Shown in pieces: positions 49,236 through 64,000 of a stretch of DNA of 64,000 bases (the stretch's first letter is position 1; every line of letters starts with the position of its first letter). The stretch is from NCBI GenBank assembly GCA_964461915.1, contig CAYWVD010000002.1, positions 47,789-111,788 on the forward strand, written 5' to 3'. Made by a program: the position numbers and the translations under genes. Below the pieces are notes generated by a model. That model searched no databases, was not told where the DNA came from, and saw only the letters and a program-made list of their open reading frames with translations. Source of the DNA: an uncultured Candidatus Saccharibacteria bacterium. GTDB lineage: Bacteria; Patescibacteriota; Dojkabacteria; B142; OLB20.

Positions 49236-49964
49236 GGGTACTTTAGCTATTGTTAAAGCTCTTCTTACCATTCGGGCCAAATCACCCAACAAATTTAACG
49301 GCCTAACAACTAGGGCCTGAAGTGGCATTTTTCCCTGGTCCCAACTTTCAAAAATTGCCTGTAGGTCTTTTGGTCCTTTTCTGCTCGCAGAATAAGTATT
49401 TAAACAGGCCAATGCATATGAAGAATTTTTTCCATATTCTTTTTCATATTCAGGAACATAAATACCTGCAAAAAGAGGTGTAAGGACACTCATATCTCCA
49501 TTTGGGCGGACGATTACCCCGGTTATTTCCCCGATAGTTTTATATAACACCTTTTGGAAGCCCATAGATTTAAATTCACCCCGGCTATATTCTAAGACAT
49601 CGCATTCCATTTGAGCTAAAACAGGAGCGATAACATCTGATGTATTTATTCGTCTAGCAAAATATTCAACATCAAGAAGTGTGTCATTAATCCCTAACGC
49701 CTTTGCAGTTGGTTTTATTGCAATATTTTGCCATGTTTTTTCAGCAACAGGACAATATGGATCTTTTCCCAGATTATTACCCGGAAAATCCGGAGTAAAA
49801 TATCTAGCTACAGAATCCCCGACAATACTATCCGCTAGCTGTAAGTCTCTTACTCGTTCAGGATCTAATACTTTCAATCCTTTTATATTAATTTGTCCGG
49901 ATTCTATTAATCCCATAATACTTCGTAACCGGAAATTACTGCAACATTTGAACAAAATATCCAA
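49218..49964 (-). CDS. Hypothetical protein
   Basis: 248 aa with no TM and no recognised motif. It is convergent with the two previous ORFs. Confidence 0.45.
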   Translation of the reverse strand: MDILFKCCSNFRLRSIMGLIESGQINIKGLKVLDPERVRDLQLADSIVGDSVARYFTPDFPGNNLGKDPYCPVAEKTWQNIAIKPTAKALGINDTLLDVEYFARRINTSDVIAPVLAQMECDVLEYSRGEFKSMGFQKVLYKTIGEITGVIVRPNGDMSVLTPLFAGIYVPEYEKEYGKNSSYALACLNTYSASRKGPKDLQAIFESWDQGKMPLQALVVRPLNLLGDLARMVRRALTIAKVPSMGFS

Positions 49965-50680
49965 ATTATCAAATCATCTAATGGGTATATATGTCCAGCC
50001 ATATTTAATGGCAATAGGTAATTTCCCGGCCACCACCAATGCCCAATATACATTGAAACGACTTCATGTATTAAATACATACTCCCAAAAATTAATGCGG
50101 GGACTATAAGTCTTTTGAGGATATGCGTCTTAAATTTGATCACCAAAATCATGATGGGTAATATTATAGCCAGCCCAATAATCCAATAATCTAGCTTCAA
50201 TAAATTCTTGTCTATAAAAAACAGCCCAAAAGTTATCCCGAACAAGGCTATGTATATTCCAATCAATATCTTATATCTATTTGAAATCTTCCAATTCCTA
50301 TCCAGATCATAAAAATATTCATAGAATGCCAGCGGGAAAATGATATTCACAAGTCCATACAAAACATTTTCTATAGGAGCGATTTCAAGGATCCTTGGGA
50401 AATCCGAAGCAACATCCCAGCTATTCGTTAATCGAGCTAAAACCTCAACCGGCAAAATGAATAAAATCGATGTCACCCCAAATATTAGTATCTTCTTTGT
50501 TGAATTTTTAAGTCTAGTTAGTGTGAAGATGAGCCCGGGGACATAGACAAGAATAATATTTAACAAATATCCGGGCCTGAATATTAATACCATTAATAAG
50601 CCTAGGATATATAGAGAAATAATTATTAATAAATCTTTATTCTTGCTTTTCTCGAATAAAATTTTGCTTTTATGCTTCAA
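49907..50680 (-). CDS. Polytopic membrane protein with lycopene-cyclase-domain-like motifs
   Basis: About 7 TM helices. Paired PxE/D-type motifs (FILPVEVLARL and IYPLDDLIIW) resemble the CrtYcd lycopene cyclase domain. Confidence 0.35.
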   Translation of the reverse strand: MKHKSKILFEKSKNKDLLIIISLYILGLLMVLIFRPGYLLNIILVYVPGLIFTLTRLKNSTKKILIFGVTSILFILPVEVLARLTNSWDVASDFPRILEIAPIENVLYGLVNIIFPLAFYEYFYDLDRNWKISNRYKILIGIYIALFGITFGLFFIDKNLLKLDYWIIGLAIILPIMILVIKFKTHILKRLIVPALIFGSMYLIHEVVSMYIGHWWWPGNYLLPLNMAGHIYPLDDLIIWIFCSNVAVISGYEVLWD

Positions 50681-59206: not shown

Positions 59207-59653
59207 ATGAGTATGGAAAACAACAAGATTTATTCGGTAATTGTAAACGCCGTTGTTGAAAAAGATGGCAAAATATTGTTATCACAACGTAGTTTGAGTG
59301 AGGCTCATGAACCGGGGAAATGGACAATCCCGGGTGGTAAAGTAGAAAATTCACCAAATGAAGAGGAAATAAAAAATATTATCGAGAAAACCTGTGCCAG
59401 AGAAGTTATAGAAGAAGTTGGAGTAGAAATTGAGGATGATATTAAGTTAATAGCAAATAACACATTTAAAAGATCAAACGGACAAATGGTTCTTGCACTT
59501 GTATTTTTATGTAAATATAAATCAGGAGAAGCAAAAGCTCTGGAAGACACAAATGCAGTTGCATGGGTAATACGAAGTGAATTAGACAATTATGATTTCC
59601 CACCAAATGTTAAAGAATATGTTGAATCTGGTTTTGCTGAATTAACAAAATGA
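59207..59653 (+). CDS. NUDIX hydrolase
   Basis: The Nudix box is GGKVENSPNEEEIKNIIEKTCAREVIEEVGV (GX5EX7REUXEEXGU). Confidence 0.85.
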   Translation: MSMENNKIYSVIVNAVVEKDGKILLSQRSLSEAHEPGKWTIPGGKVENSPNEEEIKNIIEKTCAREVIEEVGVEIEDDIKLIANNTFKRSNGQMVLALVFLCKYKSGEAKALEDTNAVAWVIRSELDNYDFPPNVKEYVESGFAELTK

Positions 59654-59772: not shown

Positions 59773-59802
59773 GGGTCTTGCAGGACTTTCGATGATTTGG
59801 CG
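59773..59802. repeat. 30-nt exact direct repeat, copy 1 (GGGTCTTGCAGGACTTTCGATGATTTGGCG), with ~20 nt of further imperfect similarity upstream
   Basis: Identical to 61601..61630. Directly beside it (59803-59835, minus strand) is a degenerate tRNA 3'-end-like segment GGTTCCAGACTCGGGTATCCCGCCA. Confidence 0.7.
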
Positions 59803-59847
59803 GGATACCCGAGTCTGGAACCGTAGTTACTTCAAATATTATTTGAA

Positions 59848-61443
59848 ATGGGTTATCTTTATTATATCTATCTATTATACCTTTTTAAAATGGATGTTCA
59901 TAATTTTATAAAAAATCCTCTAAACAGGAAGTGGCTTATTGCAGGAGGGGTCCTCGTGGGATTAATTATAATATTAGTTATAGTAGTTATTACTCTGAAC
60001 ATAGTAAATAGAAATAGTAGTAATAGTAATACTAGCGGGTCATTACCCCTTGAAGGATTAGGGGATGATTCTGATTCAGCCTTAACAAGGCTAACTCAAA
60101 AATATGACCTTTTGGAAAATGAACCAACTTATGATCTTTACGGGGAAGTTGGTTATCAGGGAACAGATGCTTCTTATGCTGCTGTACAAACACAATCAGA
60201 CTTTAGTCCGGAATCTGAGGATTGTTATCCCTCACATGTTGCAACCTGCCTCAATTTAGGTAGAGAAAAGACAGTTATGCCAAATCATTCGACAGTAAAC
60301 ATTAACGCTTCCAGTTATGTAAAAAGTTTTGATGAAAAATCAGGCTTACCTGATGGGCTTCCCATGGAGCTTAATGCTTATGCGCTTCTGCCGGAGGGAT
60401 CATTGGTTGCGTTATCAGGCACCAAAGCTCAGTTTAATTTTTATGATAATGAAACAAGGGTAGTACAAATGTCGGGATCGGCATATTATCGTGTAAAACC
60501 TCAGGAAAAAGGAAAGGTGTTTACCATTCAAGCCGGAGACAGGCTGATAGAGGTAGATAATGCGGAAGTGTATATTGAAGTGTCTTATAACAAAGAAGAT
60601 ACTCTTGCCCAAACCACTATATTTAACAATCAAAAAGTCGGAGTTGATATTAGCAAGGAGGAATATGAACAAAAAGCAGGAGAATCAAGATCCAAAATCT
60701 ATGATGTGCTTATTTACGTAACTTCGGGCAGCTCGAAGCTTTATTCAAGGGCGGATAAAAATACTGTTTTAACTGAGCTCACTGAAGGAAACCCCTACTC
60801 AATGTTTAAATTTAAAGACTATGGTAAAAGAGGTGCGTTTGAGTCTTCACAAGAGGAATCTGACGGATCTAGAAAAGGCCTGGCAAGTAATGACAGTTTC
60901 TTGAATCATTTAAACTTTTCAATGGTAAATTATGGCTTGGGAAACTTTAGTAATGTATCCCAGGAAGACCTGGTCAAAATGCTATTAATTAATTTCGATA
61001 CTGTTGAACTGCAAGCGACTAGATATGCTTTATGGTACAGGAAAGATTTGGAGGACTTGTCGCAGCAGTGGAATACTCTGGTCCAAAAGATGAGTTCCTG
61101 CAACCCCGGCTGGTATAAAACTTCCACCGGAGGATGCTGTCCGGATGGATTTGCCAGTGATCCCACAACCAAAACCTGTACTAAAACAACATATTATTAT
61201 TATTGTGATGCAGGCTACACCTTAGGCTCTGATAATAAATGTTATTCCCAGGATAAATCAAGGACACAAACCCCAACATATAATCCGGGAACAGGAGCTG
61301 GTGGCGGACTCTGTGTCGATAAGAGTAAACCCGCTTCATTCCAGTTATGCAAAATGGGAACCAGTGTTGGGACAGCAAAGATGAGCGGTTCTAAATGTTG
61401 TTTTAATGAGGTAGCATCGCCTACTTTAGAATCTATTAAGTAG
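59848..61443 (+). CDS. Membrane-anchored (type II) protein with a Cys-rich C-terminal region; the only gene between the two direct repeats
   Basis: It has an N-terminal TM (WLIAGGVLVGLIIILVIVVITL) and a C-terminal ~110 aa with 14 or more Cys (CCPDGF...YYYYCDAGY...CKMG...CCFNE). Local GC is slightly above the window average. Confidence 0.55.
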   Translation: MGYLYYIYLLYLFKMDVHNFIKNPLNRKWLIAGGVLVGLIIILVIVVITLNIVNRNSSNSNTSGSLPLEGLGDDSDSALTRLTQKYDLLENEPTYDLYGEVGYQGTDASYAAVQTQSDFSPESEDCYPSHVATCLNLGREKTVMPNHSTVNINASSYVKSFDEKSGLPDGLPMELNAYALLPEGSLVALSGTKAQFNFYDNETRVVQMSGSAYYRVKPQEKGKVFTIQAGDRLIEVDNAEVYIEVSYNKEDTLAQTTIFNNQKVGVDISKEEYEQKAGESRSKIYDVLIYVTSGSSKLYSRADKNTVLTELTEGNPYSMFKFKDYGKRGAFESSQEESDGSRKGLASNDSFLNHLNFSMVNYGLGNFSNVSQEDLVKMLLINFDTVELQATRYALWYRKDLEDLSQQWNTLVQKMSSCNPGWYKTSTGGCCPDGFASDPTTKTCTKTTYYYYCDAGYTLGSDNKCYSQDKSRTQTPTYNPGTGAGGGLCVDKSKPASFQLCKMGTSVGTAKMSGSKCCFNEVASPTLESIK

Positions 61444-61600
61444 TTGAGGGAAATAAGAATATCCTTTTATTAGATACAGGATAATGATCCCTTGGGTGGA
61501 TTTTGATGTTTTTCACCTCTCCAGGCTATAGTTTGAGTTATGGGGTAATTCGAGTCCCCAATCCGCCAGGGACTTAAGCATTCTCACGGAAGGGGGACGG

Positions 61601-61630
61601 GGGTCTTGCAGGACTTTCGATGATTTGGCG
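61601..61630. repeat. 30-nt exact direct repeat, copy 2, forming the immediate 3' flank of tRNA-Ser on the minus strand
   Basis: Identical to 59773..59802. Its last 5 nt overlap the tRNA 3' end (GCCA). Confidence 0.7.
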
Positions 61631-61715
61631 GAAGGGACAGGATTCGAACCTGCGACCCGATTTCTCGGGTACCGCTTTTCGAGAGCGGCTCTTTCGACCA
61701 CTCAGACACCCTTCC
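61626..61715 (-). tRNA. tRNA-Ser (anticodon CGA), type II with a long variable arm; CCA is encoded
   Basis: Minus strand folds as a cloverleaf: GGAAGGG-TG-TCT-GAGTGGTCGAA-AGA-G-CCGCT-CTCGAAA-AGCGG-[TACCCGAGAAATCGGGT]-CGCAGG-TTCGAAT-CCTGT-CCCTTCC-G-CCA. It has a 7-bp acceptor stem, a TTCGAAT T-loop and anticodon loop CT-CGA-AA. The ORF 61513..61701 overlapping it looks spurious. Confidence 0.85.
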
Positions 61716-61760: not shown

Positions 61761-62273
61761 TTATTCTTTGACGAGTTCTTCCACTACTTCTGGTGGTAGT
61801 TCTTCCTCAATAACAGCAGGTAATTCTACAATTGGAATTTCTTTTGCATGCTCGTCAGGTTCTTCGATCTTGTTTCTTATTGGCCCAAACTTTAATCCAT
61901 AGTGAATTATTCCTTTATCTCCATCAACATAAATTCGTCTAAAACAAGCCTGAAGGCGCATTCCATATTTTAAATCTTTGAAGTCAATGTTAACTATTTG
62001 AGTAGTAAGTCTTTCGCCATCGCTTAATTCGATTATTCCAATGATGTATGGAGCATATTCTTCAAATCCTTTATTAGGAGCATACACATTTGTCCAAGTA
62101 ACTAATTTGCCAATTGGGCTATATTCATAAACCTCAAAATCTTCTTGGTGGCATTTGATGCAAGATTTTACTGGGGGATAACTTGTTATCCCGCAATGGA
62201 CGCATTTTGACCCTATTAGTCTGTATCTGTTTTGAAATTTTCGCCAAATTTTTATCGGGCTAGATTGAACCAT
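61761..62273 (-). CDS. DUF35 OB-fold / Zn-ribbon protein (thiolase/HMG-CoA synthase partner) with an acidic C-terminal tail
   Basis: Zn-ribbon CVHCG...CIKCH is followed by an OB-fold segment (GKLVTWTNVYAP...APYIIGIIELSDGERL). The 3' end overlaps the thiolase start in an operon. Confidence 0.8.
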   Translation of the reverse strand: MVQSSPIKIWRKFQNRYRLIGSKCVHCGITSYPPVKSCIKCHQEDFEVYEYSPIGKLVTWTNVYAPNKGFEEYAPYIIGIIELSDGERLTTQIVNIDFKDLKYGMRLQACFRRIYVDGDKGIIHYGLKFGPIRNKIEEPDEHAKEIPIVELPAVIEEELPPEVVEELVKE

Positions 62274-62275
62274 TT

Positions 62276-63418
62276 TTAATTCGAAAATAAATTTATTACT
62301 GTAGTGGCACCACTACCTCCAACATTGTGCGTAAGCCCCCTATGAAGTCTTTTTTTGACCTGTCTTGCGCCAGCAGTCCCAGATAGTTGCATACATATTT
62401 CAATTGCTTGCTTGATACCTGTTGCACCAACTGGATGACCGCATGCTTTTAATCCGCCAGAGACATTTACAGGGAGTTCACCATCTTTATTGAATCTTCC
62501 GTTCCTTAAATCATTTACTGCTTTACCTTGAAGCGAAAATCCAAGATCTTCGTATGCCACAAGTTCAGCAATAGAAAAACAGTCATGAACTTCCGCAATA
62601 TCAATTAGTTTTGGTGTAATATTCAGTTTTCTATAGACTTCTTTACTTGCGATTTTGGCCGAATAAATTGAGGCAATATCTGCTCTATCGTGAAGGGCAA
62701 TTGTGCCAGTGCCAATTTCGGAAGCAACTAATTCGACTGAATGATCGTTTATCTTTTCGCTACTTAGCATGACCGCAGCAGCCCCATCACTTAATGGAGA
62801 GCAATCTAGAAGGCCAAGAGGATCAGATACCATTGTTGCATTTAATACATCTTCAACAGATATTTGTTTTTGAAACTGTGCAATAGGATTAAGCATTGCA
62901 TTTTTATGATTTTTTACACTAATTAAAGCTAAATCTTCCCTTTTAGTTTTAAATCTTCGCATATGGAACCTTGCCATCATTGCGTAAAGGCTTGGGAATG
63001 TGACTCCGTAAAAACCCTCCCATTCTTCGTCTGCCGCCGCAGATAATGCTTGAGTAGCCTGGATTGCATCAAGATCAGTCATTTTCTCAACCCCTATAAC
63101 TAGGACATTTTTATATAATCCGGACACAATTGCATTGAATCCTGCGTTTATTGCTAATGATCCGGATGCACAAGCGCCTTCTACACGAAAAGCAGGTTTG
63201 AAAATTTGAAGTTCAGAAGCTATTAAAGCCCCTAAGTGCTCTTGATTAGTGAATAGTGAACTATTCATATTGGCAACATAGATTGCATCGATCTTTTCGG
63301 GATCGATTCCGGAAGATTTAATGGCTTCAATACCTGCCTTAACCGCGAGTGATCGAAGGTCTTGATCCCATAATTCTCCGAATTTTGTAATTCCCCAACC
63401 TGTAACAAATGTGTTCAT
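62276..63418 (-). CDS. Thiolase (acetyl-CoA C-acetyltransferase, archaeal/SCP-x-like type)
   Basis: The active-site Cys context is VEGACASGSLAIN, and the C-terminus has NVSGGLKACGHPVGATG (thiolase signature). Confidence 0.85.
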   Translation of the reverse strand: MNTFVTGWGITKFGELWDQDLRSLAVKAGIEAIKSSGIDPEKIDAIYVANMNSSLFTNQEHLGALIASELQIFKPAFRVEGACASGSLAINAGFNAIVSGLYKNVLVIGVEKMTDLDAIQATQALSAAADEEWEGFYGVTFPSLYAMMARFHMRRFKTKREDLALISVKNHKNAMLNPIAQFQKQISVEDVLNATMVSDPLGLLDCSPLSDGAAAVMLSSEKINDHSVELVASEIGTGTIALHDRADIASIYSAKIASKEVYRKLNITPKLIDIAEVHDCFSIAELVAYEDLGFSLQGKAVNDLRNGRFNKDGELPVNVSGGLKACGHPVGATGIKQAIEICMQLSGTAGARQVKKRLHRGLTHNVGGSGATTVINLFSN

Positions 63419-63420
63419 GT

Positions 63421-64000
63421 TTAATCGGTATTAATATTGCGCATTAATTTAAGATATTCTGCATAGCTGATGTATTTTTTAAAGCTAAGGAGATCCTCAA
63501 CCTTGTTTAGCTTTGGCAAACTTGTTATATTTTTATTTACTTTAAAAATGAAGGCATCACTACCGGAGCCCGATCCATAAGAACATAATAATATTTTGTC
63601 ATTGGATTTTGCCGAATCAAGTACCGAGGCTAACCCAGTTAATGAACAAGCCGAATATGTATTCCCTAATTCTGGAACAGTAAAGCCTAATTTTAATTGC
63701 TTTGAAGAAACACCTAGCATTTCAGCCACTTTTTTAGGGAAAGCAGCATTAGGCATATGAAATATTACATGGTCAAAATCCTTGATCTTCATTTTGCTTT
63801 CTTCCAGAATCAAATTTACAGCATTAATTATATGTTTGAAATATGCCGGCCCACCGGTAAATCTACCTGCATGTACTGGATAATGTTGAAATTCTCGTCT
63901 CCAAAAATCTGGAGTATCTGATGTGTATGTGGAGGTGAATATTAGTTCTGCAATAATTTCTTTTGGATTACTACCAAGAATAAAAGAAGCGGCCGAAGCA
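63421..64000 (-). CDS. HMG-CoA synthase, archaeal/UPF0219 type (N-terminus beyond the window edge)
   Basis: The frame stays open on the minus strand to position 64000 (...TSDTPDFWRREFQHYPVHAGRFTGGPAYFKHIINAVNLILEESKMKIKDFDHVIFHMPNAAFPKK...). The C-terminus has LLCSYGSGSGSDAF, typical of HMGCS. The ORF-track start at 63813 is an internal TTG. Confidence 0.8.
   Translation of the reverse strand, partial: ASAASFILGSNPKEIIAELIFTSTYTSDTPDFWRREFQHYPVHAGRFTGGPAYFKHIINAVNLILEESKMKIKDFDHVIFHMPNAAFPKKVAEMLGVSSKQLKLGFTVPELGNTYSACSLTGLASVLDSAKSNDKILLCSYGSGSGSDAFIFKVNKNITSLPKLNKVEDLLSFKKYISYAEYLKLMRNINTD

Follow-up and report, generated by a model that had tools for sequence, protein, structure and literature searches.

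The genome of a Dojkabacteria (CPR) bacterium contains an operon encoding HMG-CoA reductase (HMGR), HMG-CoA synthase (HMGCS), a thiolase and a DUF35 protein. Very probably, this HMGR-HMGCS-thiolase-DUF35 operon converts acetyl-CoA to mevalonate and was inherited within the CPR, rather than imported recently from archaea. The analyzed stretch of DNA (hereafter, the window) is 64,000 nucleotides long, and the operon lies at its end. The gene order, the family identity of the encoded proteins, their intact catalytic motifs, their phylogenetic placement and their host-like composition were all observed directly and are described below.

Organization of the gene cluster

The HMGCS, thiolase and DUF35 genes are co-oriented and are separated by intergenic gaps of 2 nt (Table 1). 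A tRNA-Ser(CGA) gene is located directly downstream of the DUF35 gene. The initial annotation, which was made from the sequence of the window, had described a minus-strand trio of a truncated HMGCS, a thiolase and a DUF35 gene beside a tRNA-Ser gene. The ORFs, the family matches and the results from ARAGORN and Rfam agree with this description.

Table 1 Features of the operon and its surroundings. Positions are those of the window.
Feature	Position	Strand	Basis and remarks
DUF35 gene	61761-62273	minus	ORF, 170 aa
Zinc-ribbon cysteines of DUF35, CVHC...CIKC	62151-62204 (codons 24-41)	minus	motif search: C24, C27, C38, C41
Acidic tail of DUF35, 37 residues, NKIEEPDEHAKEIPIVELPAVIEEELPPEVVEELVKE	61764-61874 (codons 134-170)	minus	12 Glu, net charge -10
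Thiolase gene	62276-63418	minus	ORF, 380 aa
HMGCS gene, 3' part	63421-64000	minus	frame 2 open to the window edge; residues 160-351 and stop codon (192 codons)
Full HMGCS gene	63421-64476 if the window is extended	minus	351 aa
tRNA-Ser(CGA)	61626-61715	minus	ARAGORN and Rfam; neighbour of the operon, not a functional part

The complete HMGCS gene is supplied by Logan contig L001, which is 100% identical to the window over a 2399-nt overlap at the window's end. On this contig, an HMGR ORF (412 aa) is located directly upstream of HMGCS and overlaps the HMGCS start by 4 nt. Therefore, the full operon comprises four genes in the order HMGR-HMGCS-thiolase-DUF35, of which the last three are those of the window; it should make mevalonate. 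The initial annotation had proposed a mevalonate-type route and had recommended a search for further pathway genes past position 64000. The search supported the proposal, with an HMGR, by relative score of class I, present directly upstream in the same operon.

The same set of four genes is found in L082-L084, L090, L093, L004 and L033, which include sister strains as well as members of other CPR lineages. The order HMGCS-thiolase-DUF35 is found in the majority of the archaeal and bacterial loci examined. Furthermore, tRNA-Ser(CGA) is located 3' of the DUF35 gene in the sister strains L082, L084 and L085 and in a 74%-identical relative (L093). When the operon was scanned for a promoter and a terminator, nothing exceeded the shuffled expectation.

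Family identity and catalytic residues

The truncated HMGCS ORF gave 235 bits with PRK04262 from half a protein, and scored 198 bits with the archaeal model versus 70 bits with the bacterial model. The full-length HMGCS exceeds the cutoffs of PRK04262 (472 bits versus 244) and of the archaeal equivalog TIGR00748 (414 versus 353), and stays below that of the bacterial model TIGR01835 (137 versus 360). Its best match in PDB is chain I of 6ESQ (383 bits), and PhlA gave 189 bits. The E-C-H-N tetrad of HMGCS (E84, C116, H240 and N272) is intact within the motifs GSESH, EFACK, FHMPN and LGNTYS, and is invariant in an alignment of 18 sequences. The reference for this tetrad is E82/C114/H238/N270 in the numbering of the Methanothermococcus thermolithotrophicus enzyme (PMC12960953). 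H240 and N272 are encoded inside the window, and E84 and C116 just past its edge. In the archaeal complex, HMG-CoA formation is abolished by mutation of the tetrad or of the histidine in the HDxF motif of the thiolase (PMC12960953).

Pfam detects Thiolase_N and Thiolase_C_1 in the 380-aa protein, which also exceeds the cutoff of NCBIfam PRK06064 (487 bits versus 420). Its score with NF053570, the equivalog for M. thermolithotrophicus acetyl-CoA acetyltransferase, was 470 bits and is under the cutoff of 600, a strict value that is set for close archaeal relatives. The thiolase II model TIGR01930 gave 95 bits (cutoff, 241). The best match in PDB is chain A of 6ESQ (332 bits), and PhlC gave 82 bits. 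The motifs ACASGS (C83; CxS), HDCF (H278; HDxF) and GHP (H328; GHx) are kept and align with those of 6ESQ chain A. Judged by these matches, the protein is an archaeal-type (SCP-x-related) acetoacetyl-CoA thiolase.

The 170-aa protein matches the Pfam domains zf-ChsH2 and OB_ChsH2_C and is thus a DUF35 protein. Its best match in PDB is chain E of 6ESQ (101 bits, E = 6e-28, aa 7-133), and PhlB gave 40 bits. The four cysteines of its zinc ribbon align with the CxxC...CxxC of the DUF35 protein in 6ESQ. In an AF2 model, the core has a pLDDT of about 90, and the best Foldseek matches of the model are chains F and E of 6ESQ, with target-normalised TM-scores of 0.84-0.85 and rmsd values of 2.3-2.5 Å. 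Each of the three proteins therefore has a separate chain of 6ESQ as its best PDB match, in keeping with the archaeal-type thiolase/HMGCS/DUF35 module named in the initial annotation.

HMGR and the later steps of the pathway

The HMGR ORF matches Pfam HMG-CoA_red over its full length (392 bits). By relative score, it is a class-I enzyme: the class-I NADPH model TIGR00533 gave 397 bits, just under the cutoff of 442, and the class-II model gave 61 bits. In about 73 kb of the 124.5-kb contig (the 64-kb window and 9.4 kb past it), we found no gene for mevalonate kinase, phosphomevalonate kinase, decarboxylase, IPP isomerase, IP kinase or prenyl diphosphate synthase. A Nudix protein (59207-59653) was considered as a type-1 IPP isomerase and was rejected, as it matches MutT-like models best and scored only 18.6 bits with the IDI model (cutoff, 127).

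The Dojkabacteria relative L092 has three late-step genes about 5-7 kb from its trio: one for a mevalonate kinase, which scores 206 bits with TIGR00549 (cutoff, 163), one for an MVD-like decarboxylase and one for an IDI-like Nudix protein. In CPR bacteria, the genes for the late steps have the same distribution as those for the early steps and are syntenic with cis-prenyl diphosphate synthase (Hoshino & Gaucher 2018, PMC6107057). We infer that the late steps are present in this genome as well. Most likely, the pathway would supply the isopentenyl diphosphate from which undecaprenyl phosphate, the carrier lipid in peptidoglycan synthesis, is built. On the demand side, the window encodes MurJ, a Mur ligase, FemAB, MltG and sortase.

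The probable mechanism can be drawn from the solved Methanothermococcus complex. The thiolase would condense two acetyl-CoA to acetoacetyl-CoA, a thermodynamically unfavourable reaction. The DUF35 protein would hold the thiolase and HMGCS together, and HMGCS would add a third acetyl-CoA at once; this step is favourable and would draw the thiolase reaction forward, with channelling of the intermediate. The co-transcribed class-I HMGR would then convert HMG-CoA to mevalonate. Formation of the complex and channelling are predicted here from identities of 40-55%.

Genomic context and phylogenetic placement

The surroundings of the operon are bacterial. The window encodes RpoB, RpoC, S7, S12, FtsZ, FtsA, FtsQ, MurJ, sigma-70, sortase, FemAB and a Mur ligase, and these proteins confirm the bacterial context (rpoB/rpoC, ftsZ and sortase) reported in the initial annotation. 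Apart from one record labelled only 'bacterium', every named best match of RpoB is from Candidatus Dojkabacteria or candidate division WS6 (58-72% identity), so the host, which had been called CPR-like, can now be placed in Dojkabacteria/WS6. A comparison of GC content and codon usage had been suggested as a check for foreign origin of the operon. In GC, GC3 and codon usage, the operon is indistinguishable from 40 other genes of the window: its GC3 z-scores are -0.2 to -0.9, and the codon-usage distances of the three enzyme genes are 0.157-0.167 within a background range of 0.113-0.233. Thus, the operon is host-like on all three measures.

We constructed NJ trees, which are unrooted and contain sequences from among the matches listed; their deep nodes are weak (bootstrap 27-66). 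The closest (Dojkabacteria) genomes were added through the contigs encoding the proteins, beyond the matches listed in the genome-contig scan. In the tree of concatenated HMGCS and thiolase, the window sequences group with L093 (bootstrap 100), then with Dojkabacteria L090 (100) and then with Dojkabacteria L092 (92). In another NJ tree, the Dojkabacteria clade containing the window genes has a bootstrap value of 75. The bootstrap value for the wider CPR-containing group is 65. HMGCS and thiolase both branch inside the Dojkabacteria clade.

Discussion

The three subunits raise the question of whether the trio makes mevalonate or has been put to another use. Bacterial HMGS/ACAT/DUF35 complexes have been repurposed as Friedel-Crafts C-acyltransferases, such as PhlABC of Pseudomonas protegens (5M3K) and MucABC/SmaATase of Streptococcus (9VBO), or as a degenerate acetoacetyl-CoA-cleaving complex in Pseudomonas fluorescens. 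About 1,030 co-localised HMGS/ACAT/DUF35 clusters are present in bacteria, and all those characterised have lost HMG-CoA synthesis (PMC12960953). The window proteins resemble PhlABC and MucABC in their HMGS-like, ACAT-like and DUF35 subunits, with matches in both sequence and fold, and PhlA, PhlB and PhlC are detectable homologues. It is nevertheless extremely improbable that the trio is a complex of this kind and not a mevalonate enzyme. The repurposed complexes are without the E-C-H-N tetrad, the acyltransferases have also lost the HDxF histidine of the thiolase, and PhlABC and MucABC sit in PKS/NRPS clusters (PMC12960953). In contrast, the window genes keep all of these motifs, and the intact catalytic motifs argue against a repurposed Friedel-Crafts acyltransferase. 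Furthermore, HMGR is translationally coupled upstream, no PKS/NRPS domains are found among the window proteins, and the archaeal complex scores 2-4 times as high as PhlABC, with MucABC likewise far lower. A degradative operon, in which mevalonate, HMG-CoA or acetoacetate is broken down to acetyl-CoA and host carbon is harvested, seems no more probable. The thiolase and HMGR reactions are reversible, and CPR bacteria are scavengers with reduced metabolism. However, the HMGCS reaction is effectively irreversible, and this HMGR fits the biosynthetic NADPH class-I model over the degradative class-II model (397 and 61 bits, respectively). Degradation would also require an HMG-CoA lyase, which was not seen in the sequence read, and the relative L092 has forward late-pathway genes near the trio. 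The synthesis of mevalonate is thus the very probable function of the operon.

With respect to origin, the initial annotation had raised the possibility of horizontal acquisition from archaea. Such a transfer into this bacterium or its recent ancestors is very unlikely. The enzymes are archaeal-type by HMM (for HMGCS, 414 bits with TIGR00748 versus 137 bits with the bacterial model), archaeal HMGCS homologues (53-58% identity) are barely more distant than those of named Dojkabacteria (57-63%), and the CPR clade joins DPANN archaea in the NJ tree with a bootstrap value of 84. However, the window genes are nested within Dojkabacteria (bootstrap 92-100 in the concatenated tree; 75 in the other), and the four-gene order is common to Daviesbacteria and other Patescibacteria. 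Among named relatives, those from Dojkabacteria are closest in HMGCS and in RpoB alike, the GC, GC3 and codon usage are host-like, and the published trees of the early steps are congruent with the CPR species tree (PMC6107057). Thus, there is no sign of a recent transfer from archaea. A different proposal is that the module did not descend vertically from the last universal common ancestor but passed long ago between the ancestor of CPR bacteria and archaea, possibly DPANN-like ones; it concerns the origin only and would leave the function unchanged. We consider this proposal possible, if somewhat unlikely. In the tree, Woesearchaeota, Aenigmatarchaeota and other DPANN archaea join the CPR clade (bootstrap 65-84), and a separate bacterial clade (Ignavibacteria, Bacteroidota, WOR-3 and Gemmatimonadetes; bootstrap 100) shows that the module crossed domains at least once. 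In the published analysis, CPR sequences cluster together, adjoining archaea, and this was read as ancient inheritance (PMC6107057). Our NJ tree is too weak at its deep nodes to decide between ancient transfer and vertical descent. An inherited CPR trait, whatever its deep source, is the reading that we prefer.

Among known systems, the closest is the M. thermolithotrophicus complex (6ESQ/6ET9). Both have three subunits and the gene order HMGCS-thiolase-DUF35, and the E-C-H-N tetrad, CxS, HDxF, GHx and the four zinc-ribbon cysteines are all present in the window genes too. Unlike the archaeal system, the window genes belong to a bacterial host (Dojkabacteria), have HMGR in the operon and encode a DUF35 protein with an extra 37-residue tail. 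Moreover, the identity is only about 40-55%, and the thiolase is under the strict equivalog cutoff. The Gram-positive upper mevalonate pathway (MvaS-type HMGCS, thiolase II and class-II HMGR) has the same chemistry from acetyl-CoA to mevalonate. In contrast to that pathway, the HMGCS here fails TIGR01835, the thiolase is of the SCP-x/archaeal type, HMGR is class I by relative score and a DUF35 protein is present. In the BbsAB benzoylsuccinyl-CoA thiolase (7PXP) and the Ltp2-ChsH2 steroid aldolase (6OK1), a DUF35 partner also binds an SCP-x-type thiolase fold, and both gave weak but significant matches. However, their scores are far lower (thiolase, 172 and 93 bits; DUF35, 26-41 bits), and these pairs are without an HMGCS partner and act on other substrates.

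Hoshino and Gaucher (2018, Mol Biol Evol, PMC6107057) reported an archaeal-type AACT replacing thiolase II, an archaeal-like HMGS and a class-I HMGR in most Microgenomates and basal Parcubacteria, and Dojkabacteria are named. Our trees and HMM scores reproduce this pattern, and the DUF35 subunit, which is unmentioned in that paper, is a difference. Because archaeal-type versions of these enzymes in CPR bacteria, including Dojkabacteria, were published in 2018, our finding is correct but ordinary and already known, and it raises no new question. This Dojkabacteria genome fits the published CPR pattern, in which isoprenoid precursors start from an archaeal-type thiolase/HMGCS module and a class-I HMGR and not from the MEP pathway or the Gram-positive MvaS/MvaE enzymes. 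It is one more case that bears on the debated question of whether the mevalonate pathway arose before bacteria and archaea diverged. The DUF35 gene can be annotated as that of a complex scaffold and the thiolase gene as that of an acetoacetyl-CoA thiolase.

The initial annotation had also pointed to a lycopene-cyclase-domain-like membrane protein at 49907-50680. Direct scans of this ORF with Pfam and NCBIfam were negative for the domain, even at E <= 5. The resemblance appeared only through homologues, with PF18916 in 15 of the 62 and TIGR03462 in 17 of them. The link with lycopene cyclase, which runs via homologues only, is weak. CrtB, CrtI and prenyltransferase genes were absent near the ORF, an HMM of its family detected no copy near mevalonate-pathway genes in any fetched locus, and a literature search on CPR and the lycopene cyclase domain found nothing.

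Two details of the DUF35 protein are new, and both are small: patchy loss of the zinc ribbon among CPR relatives and a lineage-specific acidic tail. Several other CPR homologues have lost the four cysteines of the ribbon or the ribbon as a whole. This patchy loss suggests that the ribbon is dispensable for scaffolding. Because several CPR relatives have lost it, the scaffold architecture in CPR bacteria may differ from the archaeal one. The acidic C-terminal tail (aa 134-170), which the initial annotation had pointed out as unusual, is indeed present, and it is limited to one species-level cluster at 90% identity. It is C-terminal to the region that aligns with the 130-aa archaeal DUF35 protein, and is absent from 65 other homologues in the fetched loci. 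Likewise, in a search of 5.8 billion proteins, it was absent from every match outside the query's own cluster. In the AF2 model, the tail is a low-confidence coil followed by a short helix at 161-168. A flexible linker with a short helix (...PE[IV]VEEL[VE]KE) could form a functional docking arm, which would tether, for example, the co-translated class-I HMGR or another partner to the thiolase and HMGCS and extend channelling to mevalonate. Together with the loss of the ribbon, such an arm would imply a metabolon that is conserved in its other parts but has a scaffold subunit under remodelling in CPR bacteria. We regard this reading as a whole, docking arm included, as very unlikely. Within its own 90%-identity cluster, the length of the tail is kept in the full-length members and its sequence is variable.

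Gene layout and identity of the operon

Three genes on the minus strand at the window end, encoding HMG-CoA synthase (HMGCS), a thiolase and a DUF35 protein, had been recognized beside a tRNA-Ser in the initial annotation, and the analysis reproduced these positions and the tRNA. The intergenic spacing within the trio is 2 nt. L001, a Logan contig found by exact-protein look-up, covers the final 2399 nt of the window at 100% identity and reaches 9.4 kb past its end. On this contig HMGCS is completed to 351 aa, and an HMG-CoA reductase (HMGR) of 412 aa lies directly upstream, its stop overlapping the HMGCS start by 4 nt. Because of this overlap and the 2-nt gaps, HMGR-HMGCS-thiolase-DUF35 is a four-gene translationally coupled operon. 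Sister-strain contigs from several metagenomes carry the same set, as do a Dojkabacteria MAG (L090), a 74%-identical relative (L093) and loci of Daviesbacteria and other Patescibacteria. A P-type cation ATPase (~800 aa) is encoded within a few kb of the operon in both L001 and L090, on opposite operon sides; this is probably leftover synteny, not a functional link.

Features of the window and of related contigs
Feature	Position	Strand	Basis or remark
DUF35 gene, 170 aa	61761-62273	minus	ORF listing; Pfam zf-ChsH2 + OB_ChsH2_C
Thiolase gene, 380 aa	62276-63418	minus	ORF listing; NCBIfam PRK06064, 487 bits (cutoff 420)
HMGCS C-terminal half, 192 codons	63421 to window edge	minus	frame open throughout
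tRNA-Ser(CGA)	61626-61715	minus	same strand as trio
Variable segment, 1,797 bp	59804-61600		single gene
ORF of variable segment, 531 aa	59848-61443		no Pfam match
31-nt direct repeats	59773-59803; 61601-61631		perfect; flank variable segment
Nudix protein	59207-59653		MutT-like
Membrane protein, 257 aa	49907-50680	minus	about six TM-like segments
ORF, 812 aa	44448-46886		no Pfam family (E <= 0.001)
ORF, 571 aa	3590-5305		no Pfam family (E <= 0.001)
ORF, 434 aa	22809-24113		no Pfam family (E <= 0.001)
ORF, 473 aa	55952-57373		no Pfam family (E <= 0.001)
ORF, 460 aa	51475-52857		no Pfam family (E <= 0.001)
P-type ATPase	L001 1940-4363		
P-type ATPase	L090 13334-15733		
DUF35, ribbon cysteines replaced	L092 13508-13906		
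DUF35, ribbon deleted	L090 11647-11949		~100 aa, OB-fold only
DUF35, ribbon deleted	L004 8343-8642		~100 aa, OB-fold only
DUF35, ribbon deleted	L033 8265-8567		~100 aa, OB-fold only

The names given to the trio agree with the Pfam and NCBIfam matches and with solved structures. The best structural match of each protein is a different chain of one entry, 6ESQ/6ET9 (HMGCS 383, thiolase 332, DUF35 101 bits), the complex of Methanothermococcus thermolithotrophicus with the same three subunits. With the truncated HMGCS, the archaeal model gave 198 bits and the bacterial one 70; the full-length protein clears the cutoff of the archaeal equivalog TIGR00748 (414 vs 353 bits), and its 137 bits on the bacterial model are below the cutoff of 360. 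The thiolase, at 470 bits, falls short of the strict cutoff (600) for the M. thermolithotrophicus equivalog. The class-I NADPH model gave HMGR 397 bits, slightly under the cutoff of 442, and the class-II model 61 bits. The AF2 model of DUF35 (core pLDDT ~90) superposed best on the 6ESQ DUF35 chains, with a target-normalised TM-score of 0.84-0.85.

Proposed function

According to a 2026 paper, complexes that truly form HMG-CoA are told apart from repurposed bacterial ones by two sets of residues, the E-C-H-N tetrad of HMGS and the CxS, HDxF and GHx motifs of the thiolase. Mutation of the tetrad or of the HDxF histidine abolished HMG-CoA formation (PMC12960953). In the present proteins, the tetrad is complete (E84, C116, H240, N272) and the thiolase catalytic residues (C83, H278, H328) are all kept. 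The trio does match subunits of a Friedel-Crafts acyltransferase (PhlA, PhlC and PhlB at 189, 82 and 40 bits), but these scores are low relative to those for 6ESQ/6ET9, the catalytic motifs are intact and the trio is coupled to HMGR, which together exclude a complex of the Friedel-Crafts or degenerate type. The class-I HMGR and the HMGCS chemistry make a degradative role unlikely. The mevalonate-type route first proposed is upheld by the archaeal-type trio, its intact motifs and the coupled HMGR.

In the archaeal complex, unfavourable acetoacetyl-CoA condensation and favourable HMG-CoA synthesis are linked by a channelled intermediate (summarised in PMC12960953). By analogy, DUF35 would scaffold thiolase and HMGCS, and HMG-CoA synthesis would pull the condensation forward with channelling of the intermediate; HMGR is then predicted to make mevalonate from HMG-CoA. 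Beyond position 64000, where the initial annotation proposed to look for downstream genes, HMGR was found, but no late-pathway gene was detected in the ~73 kb covered of the 124.5-kb contig (window and L001 extension). The Nudix protein was considered as IDI and rejected. In L092, a Dojkabacteria relative, a mevalonate kinase (206 bits, cutoff 163), an MVD-like decarboxylase and an IDI-like Nudix protein are encoded ~5-7 kb from the trio. Because the window encodes peptidoglycan genes, the pathway would most plausibly feed undecaprenyl phosphate.

Host genome and origin of the operon

The host was confirmed as a CPR-like bacterium. A Pfam scan of 46 ORFs revealed an ordinary bacterial core (RpoB, RpoC, S7, S12, RnpA, sigma-70, PNPase and GltX; FtsZ, FtsA, FtsQ, MurJ, Mur ligase, FemAB, MltG, RuvX and sortase) and many ORFs without a family match, including five large ones; on L001, a Thr/Pro-rich ORF of 1008 aa immediately upstream of HMGR is likewise without a Pfam family. 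The named top RpoB matches are all Candidatus Dojkabacteria or candidate division WS6 (58-72% identity), the sole exception being recorded only as 'bacterium'. The genome uses the standard code, because ORFs of >1000 aa stay intact under table 11.

Horizontal gain from archaea had been suggested for the trio. The nearest HMGCS homologues are metagenomic proteins (72-74% identity), followed by Dojkabacteria, WS6 and Parcubacteria sequences (57-63%) and then archaeal ones (53-58%). An NJ tree built from 98 HMGCS sequences places the window within a Dojkabacteria/WS6 clade (bootstrap 75). In a concatenated HMGCS and thiolase NJ tree (65 taxa, 731 columns), it joins L093 (100), then Dojkabacteria L090 (100) and L092 (92), then other CPR sequences (65) and then DPANN archaea (84). 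Operon GC (0.357-0.394) was compared with the background (0.350 +/- 0.027); GC3 z-scores are -0.2 to -0.9, and the codon-usage distances of the three enzyme genes (0.157-0.167) lie within the span of host genes >= 1 kb (0.113-0.233). Neither the phylogeny nor GC, GC3 or codon usage of the operon shows a sign of recent import. A recent archaeal transfer is therefore disfavoured by the position inside Dojkabacteria and the host-like composition, and the suggested gain from archaea is unsupported. Judged from these unrooted NJ trees, sampled from among the matches listed, the CPR ancestor may have either inherited or acquired the module.

Among the matches listed, MAGs of Ignavibacteria/Melioribacter, Bacteroidota, WOR-3 and Gemmatimonadetes also carry archaeal-type HMGCS-thiolase-DUF35 trios (loci L008, L014, L015, L021, L026, L028, L029, L034, L048, L049, L054 and L078). 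These trios form their own clade (bootstrap 100) apart from the CPR clade; therefore, bacteria have gained or retained the module at least twice. Two MAG contigs labelled Methanoperedens sp. (L005) and uncultured Gammaproteobacteria (L060) have HMGR-HMGCS-thiolase with a ribbon-less DUF35, the CPR arrangement, and group at bootstrap 100 with L033 (Patescibacteria) and L004 (Daviesbacteria). Either mis-binning of CPR contigs or transfer may account for them.

In CPR, an archaeal-type AACT was reported to replace thiolase II alongside HMGS and HMGR-I, in CPR clades that lie near archaea and agree with the CPR species tree; early-step and late-step genes have the same distribution, and the mevalonate genes show synteny with cis-prenyl diphosphate synthase (Hoshino & Gaucher 2018, PMC6107057). 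The DUF35 subunit goes unmentioned there. Bacterial co-localised HMGS/ACAT/DUF35 loci have been mined since 2018 (PMC12960953). The initial observation of the trio is correct and its functional reading right, and the headline phenomenon had already been published.

DUF35 tail and zinc ribbon

The C-terminal tail noted initially is real and young. Residues 134-170 run past the end of the archaeal (6ESQ) DUF35; the tail is missing in 65 other homologues from the fetched loci and, in a search of 5.8 billion proteins, in every match outside the query's own 90% cluster. Within that cluster, full-length members are all 170 aa and the tail is more variable than the core. AF2 models it as a low-confidence coil, then a short helix (161-168).

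All four zinc-ribbon cysteines (CxxC...CxxC) are retained in the DUF35 proteins of the window and L093. The ribbon is lost in many CPR homologues: L092 and proteins P0305-P0311 keep the segment with all four cysteines replaced, and in L090, L004 and L033 it is deleted. Judging from these sequences, the CPR scaffold may not require the ribbon.

Possible lycopene-cyclase-like protein and variable segment

The lycopene-cyclase likeness ascribed to the membrane protein at 49907-50680 is supported indirectly, through homologues; the protein itself has no direct Pfam or NCBIfam match. Its family has 352 representatives (E <= 1e-3), with members of ~250-270 aa, and includes matches to Pfam Lycopene_cyc in 15 of 62 aligned members (best E = 7e-7) and to TIGR03462 in 17 of 62 (best E = 6e-9). 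The consensus has two PxE(E/D)...YExFxD motifs, resembling fused CrtYc/Yd. The window holds no carotenoid or prenyltransferase genes, and no homologue lies near mevalonate genes in the other fetched loci.

The protein of the variable segment has one N-terminal TM-like segment and a Cys-rich C-terminus. The second flanking repeat overlaps the 3' end of tRNA-Ser(CGA), and the repeats resemble an att-type duplication caused by insertion at this tRNA, but the insert contains no integrase. The segment is missing from sister-strain contigs L082 and L085, and a third, L084, carries a different deletion there. Therefore, the region 3' of the tRNA differs between strains.
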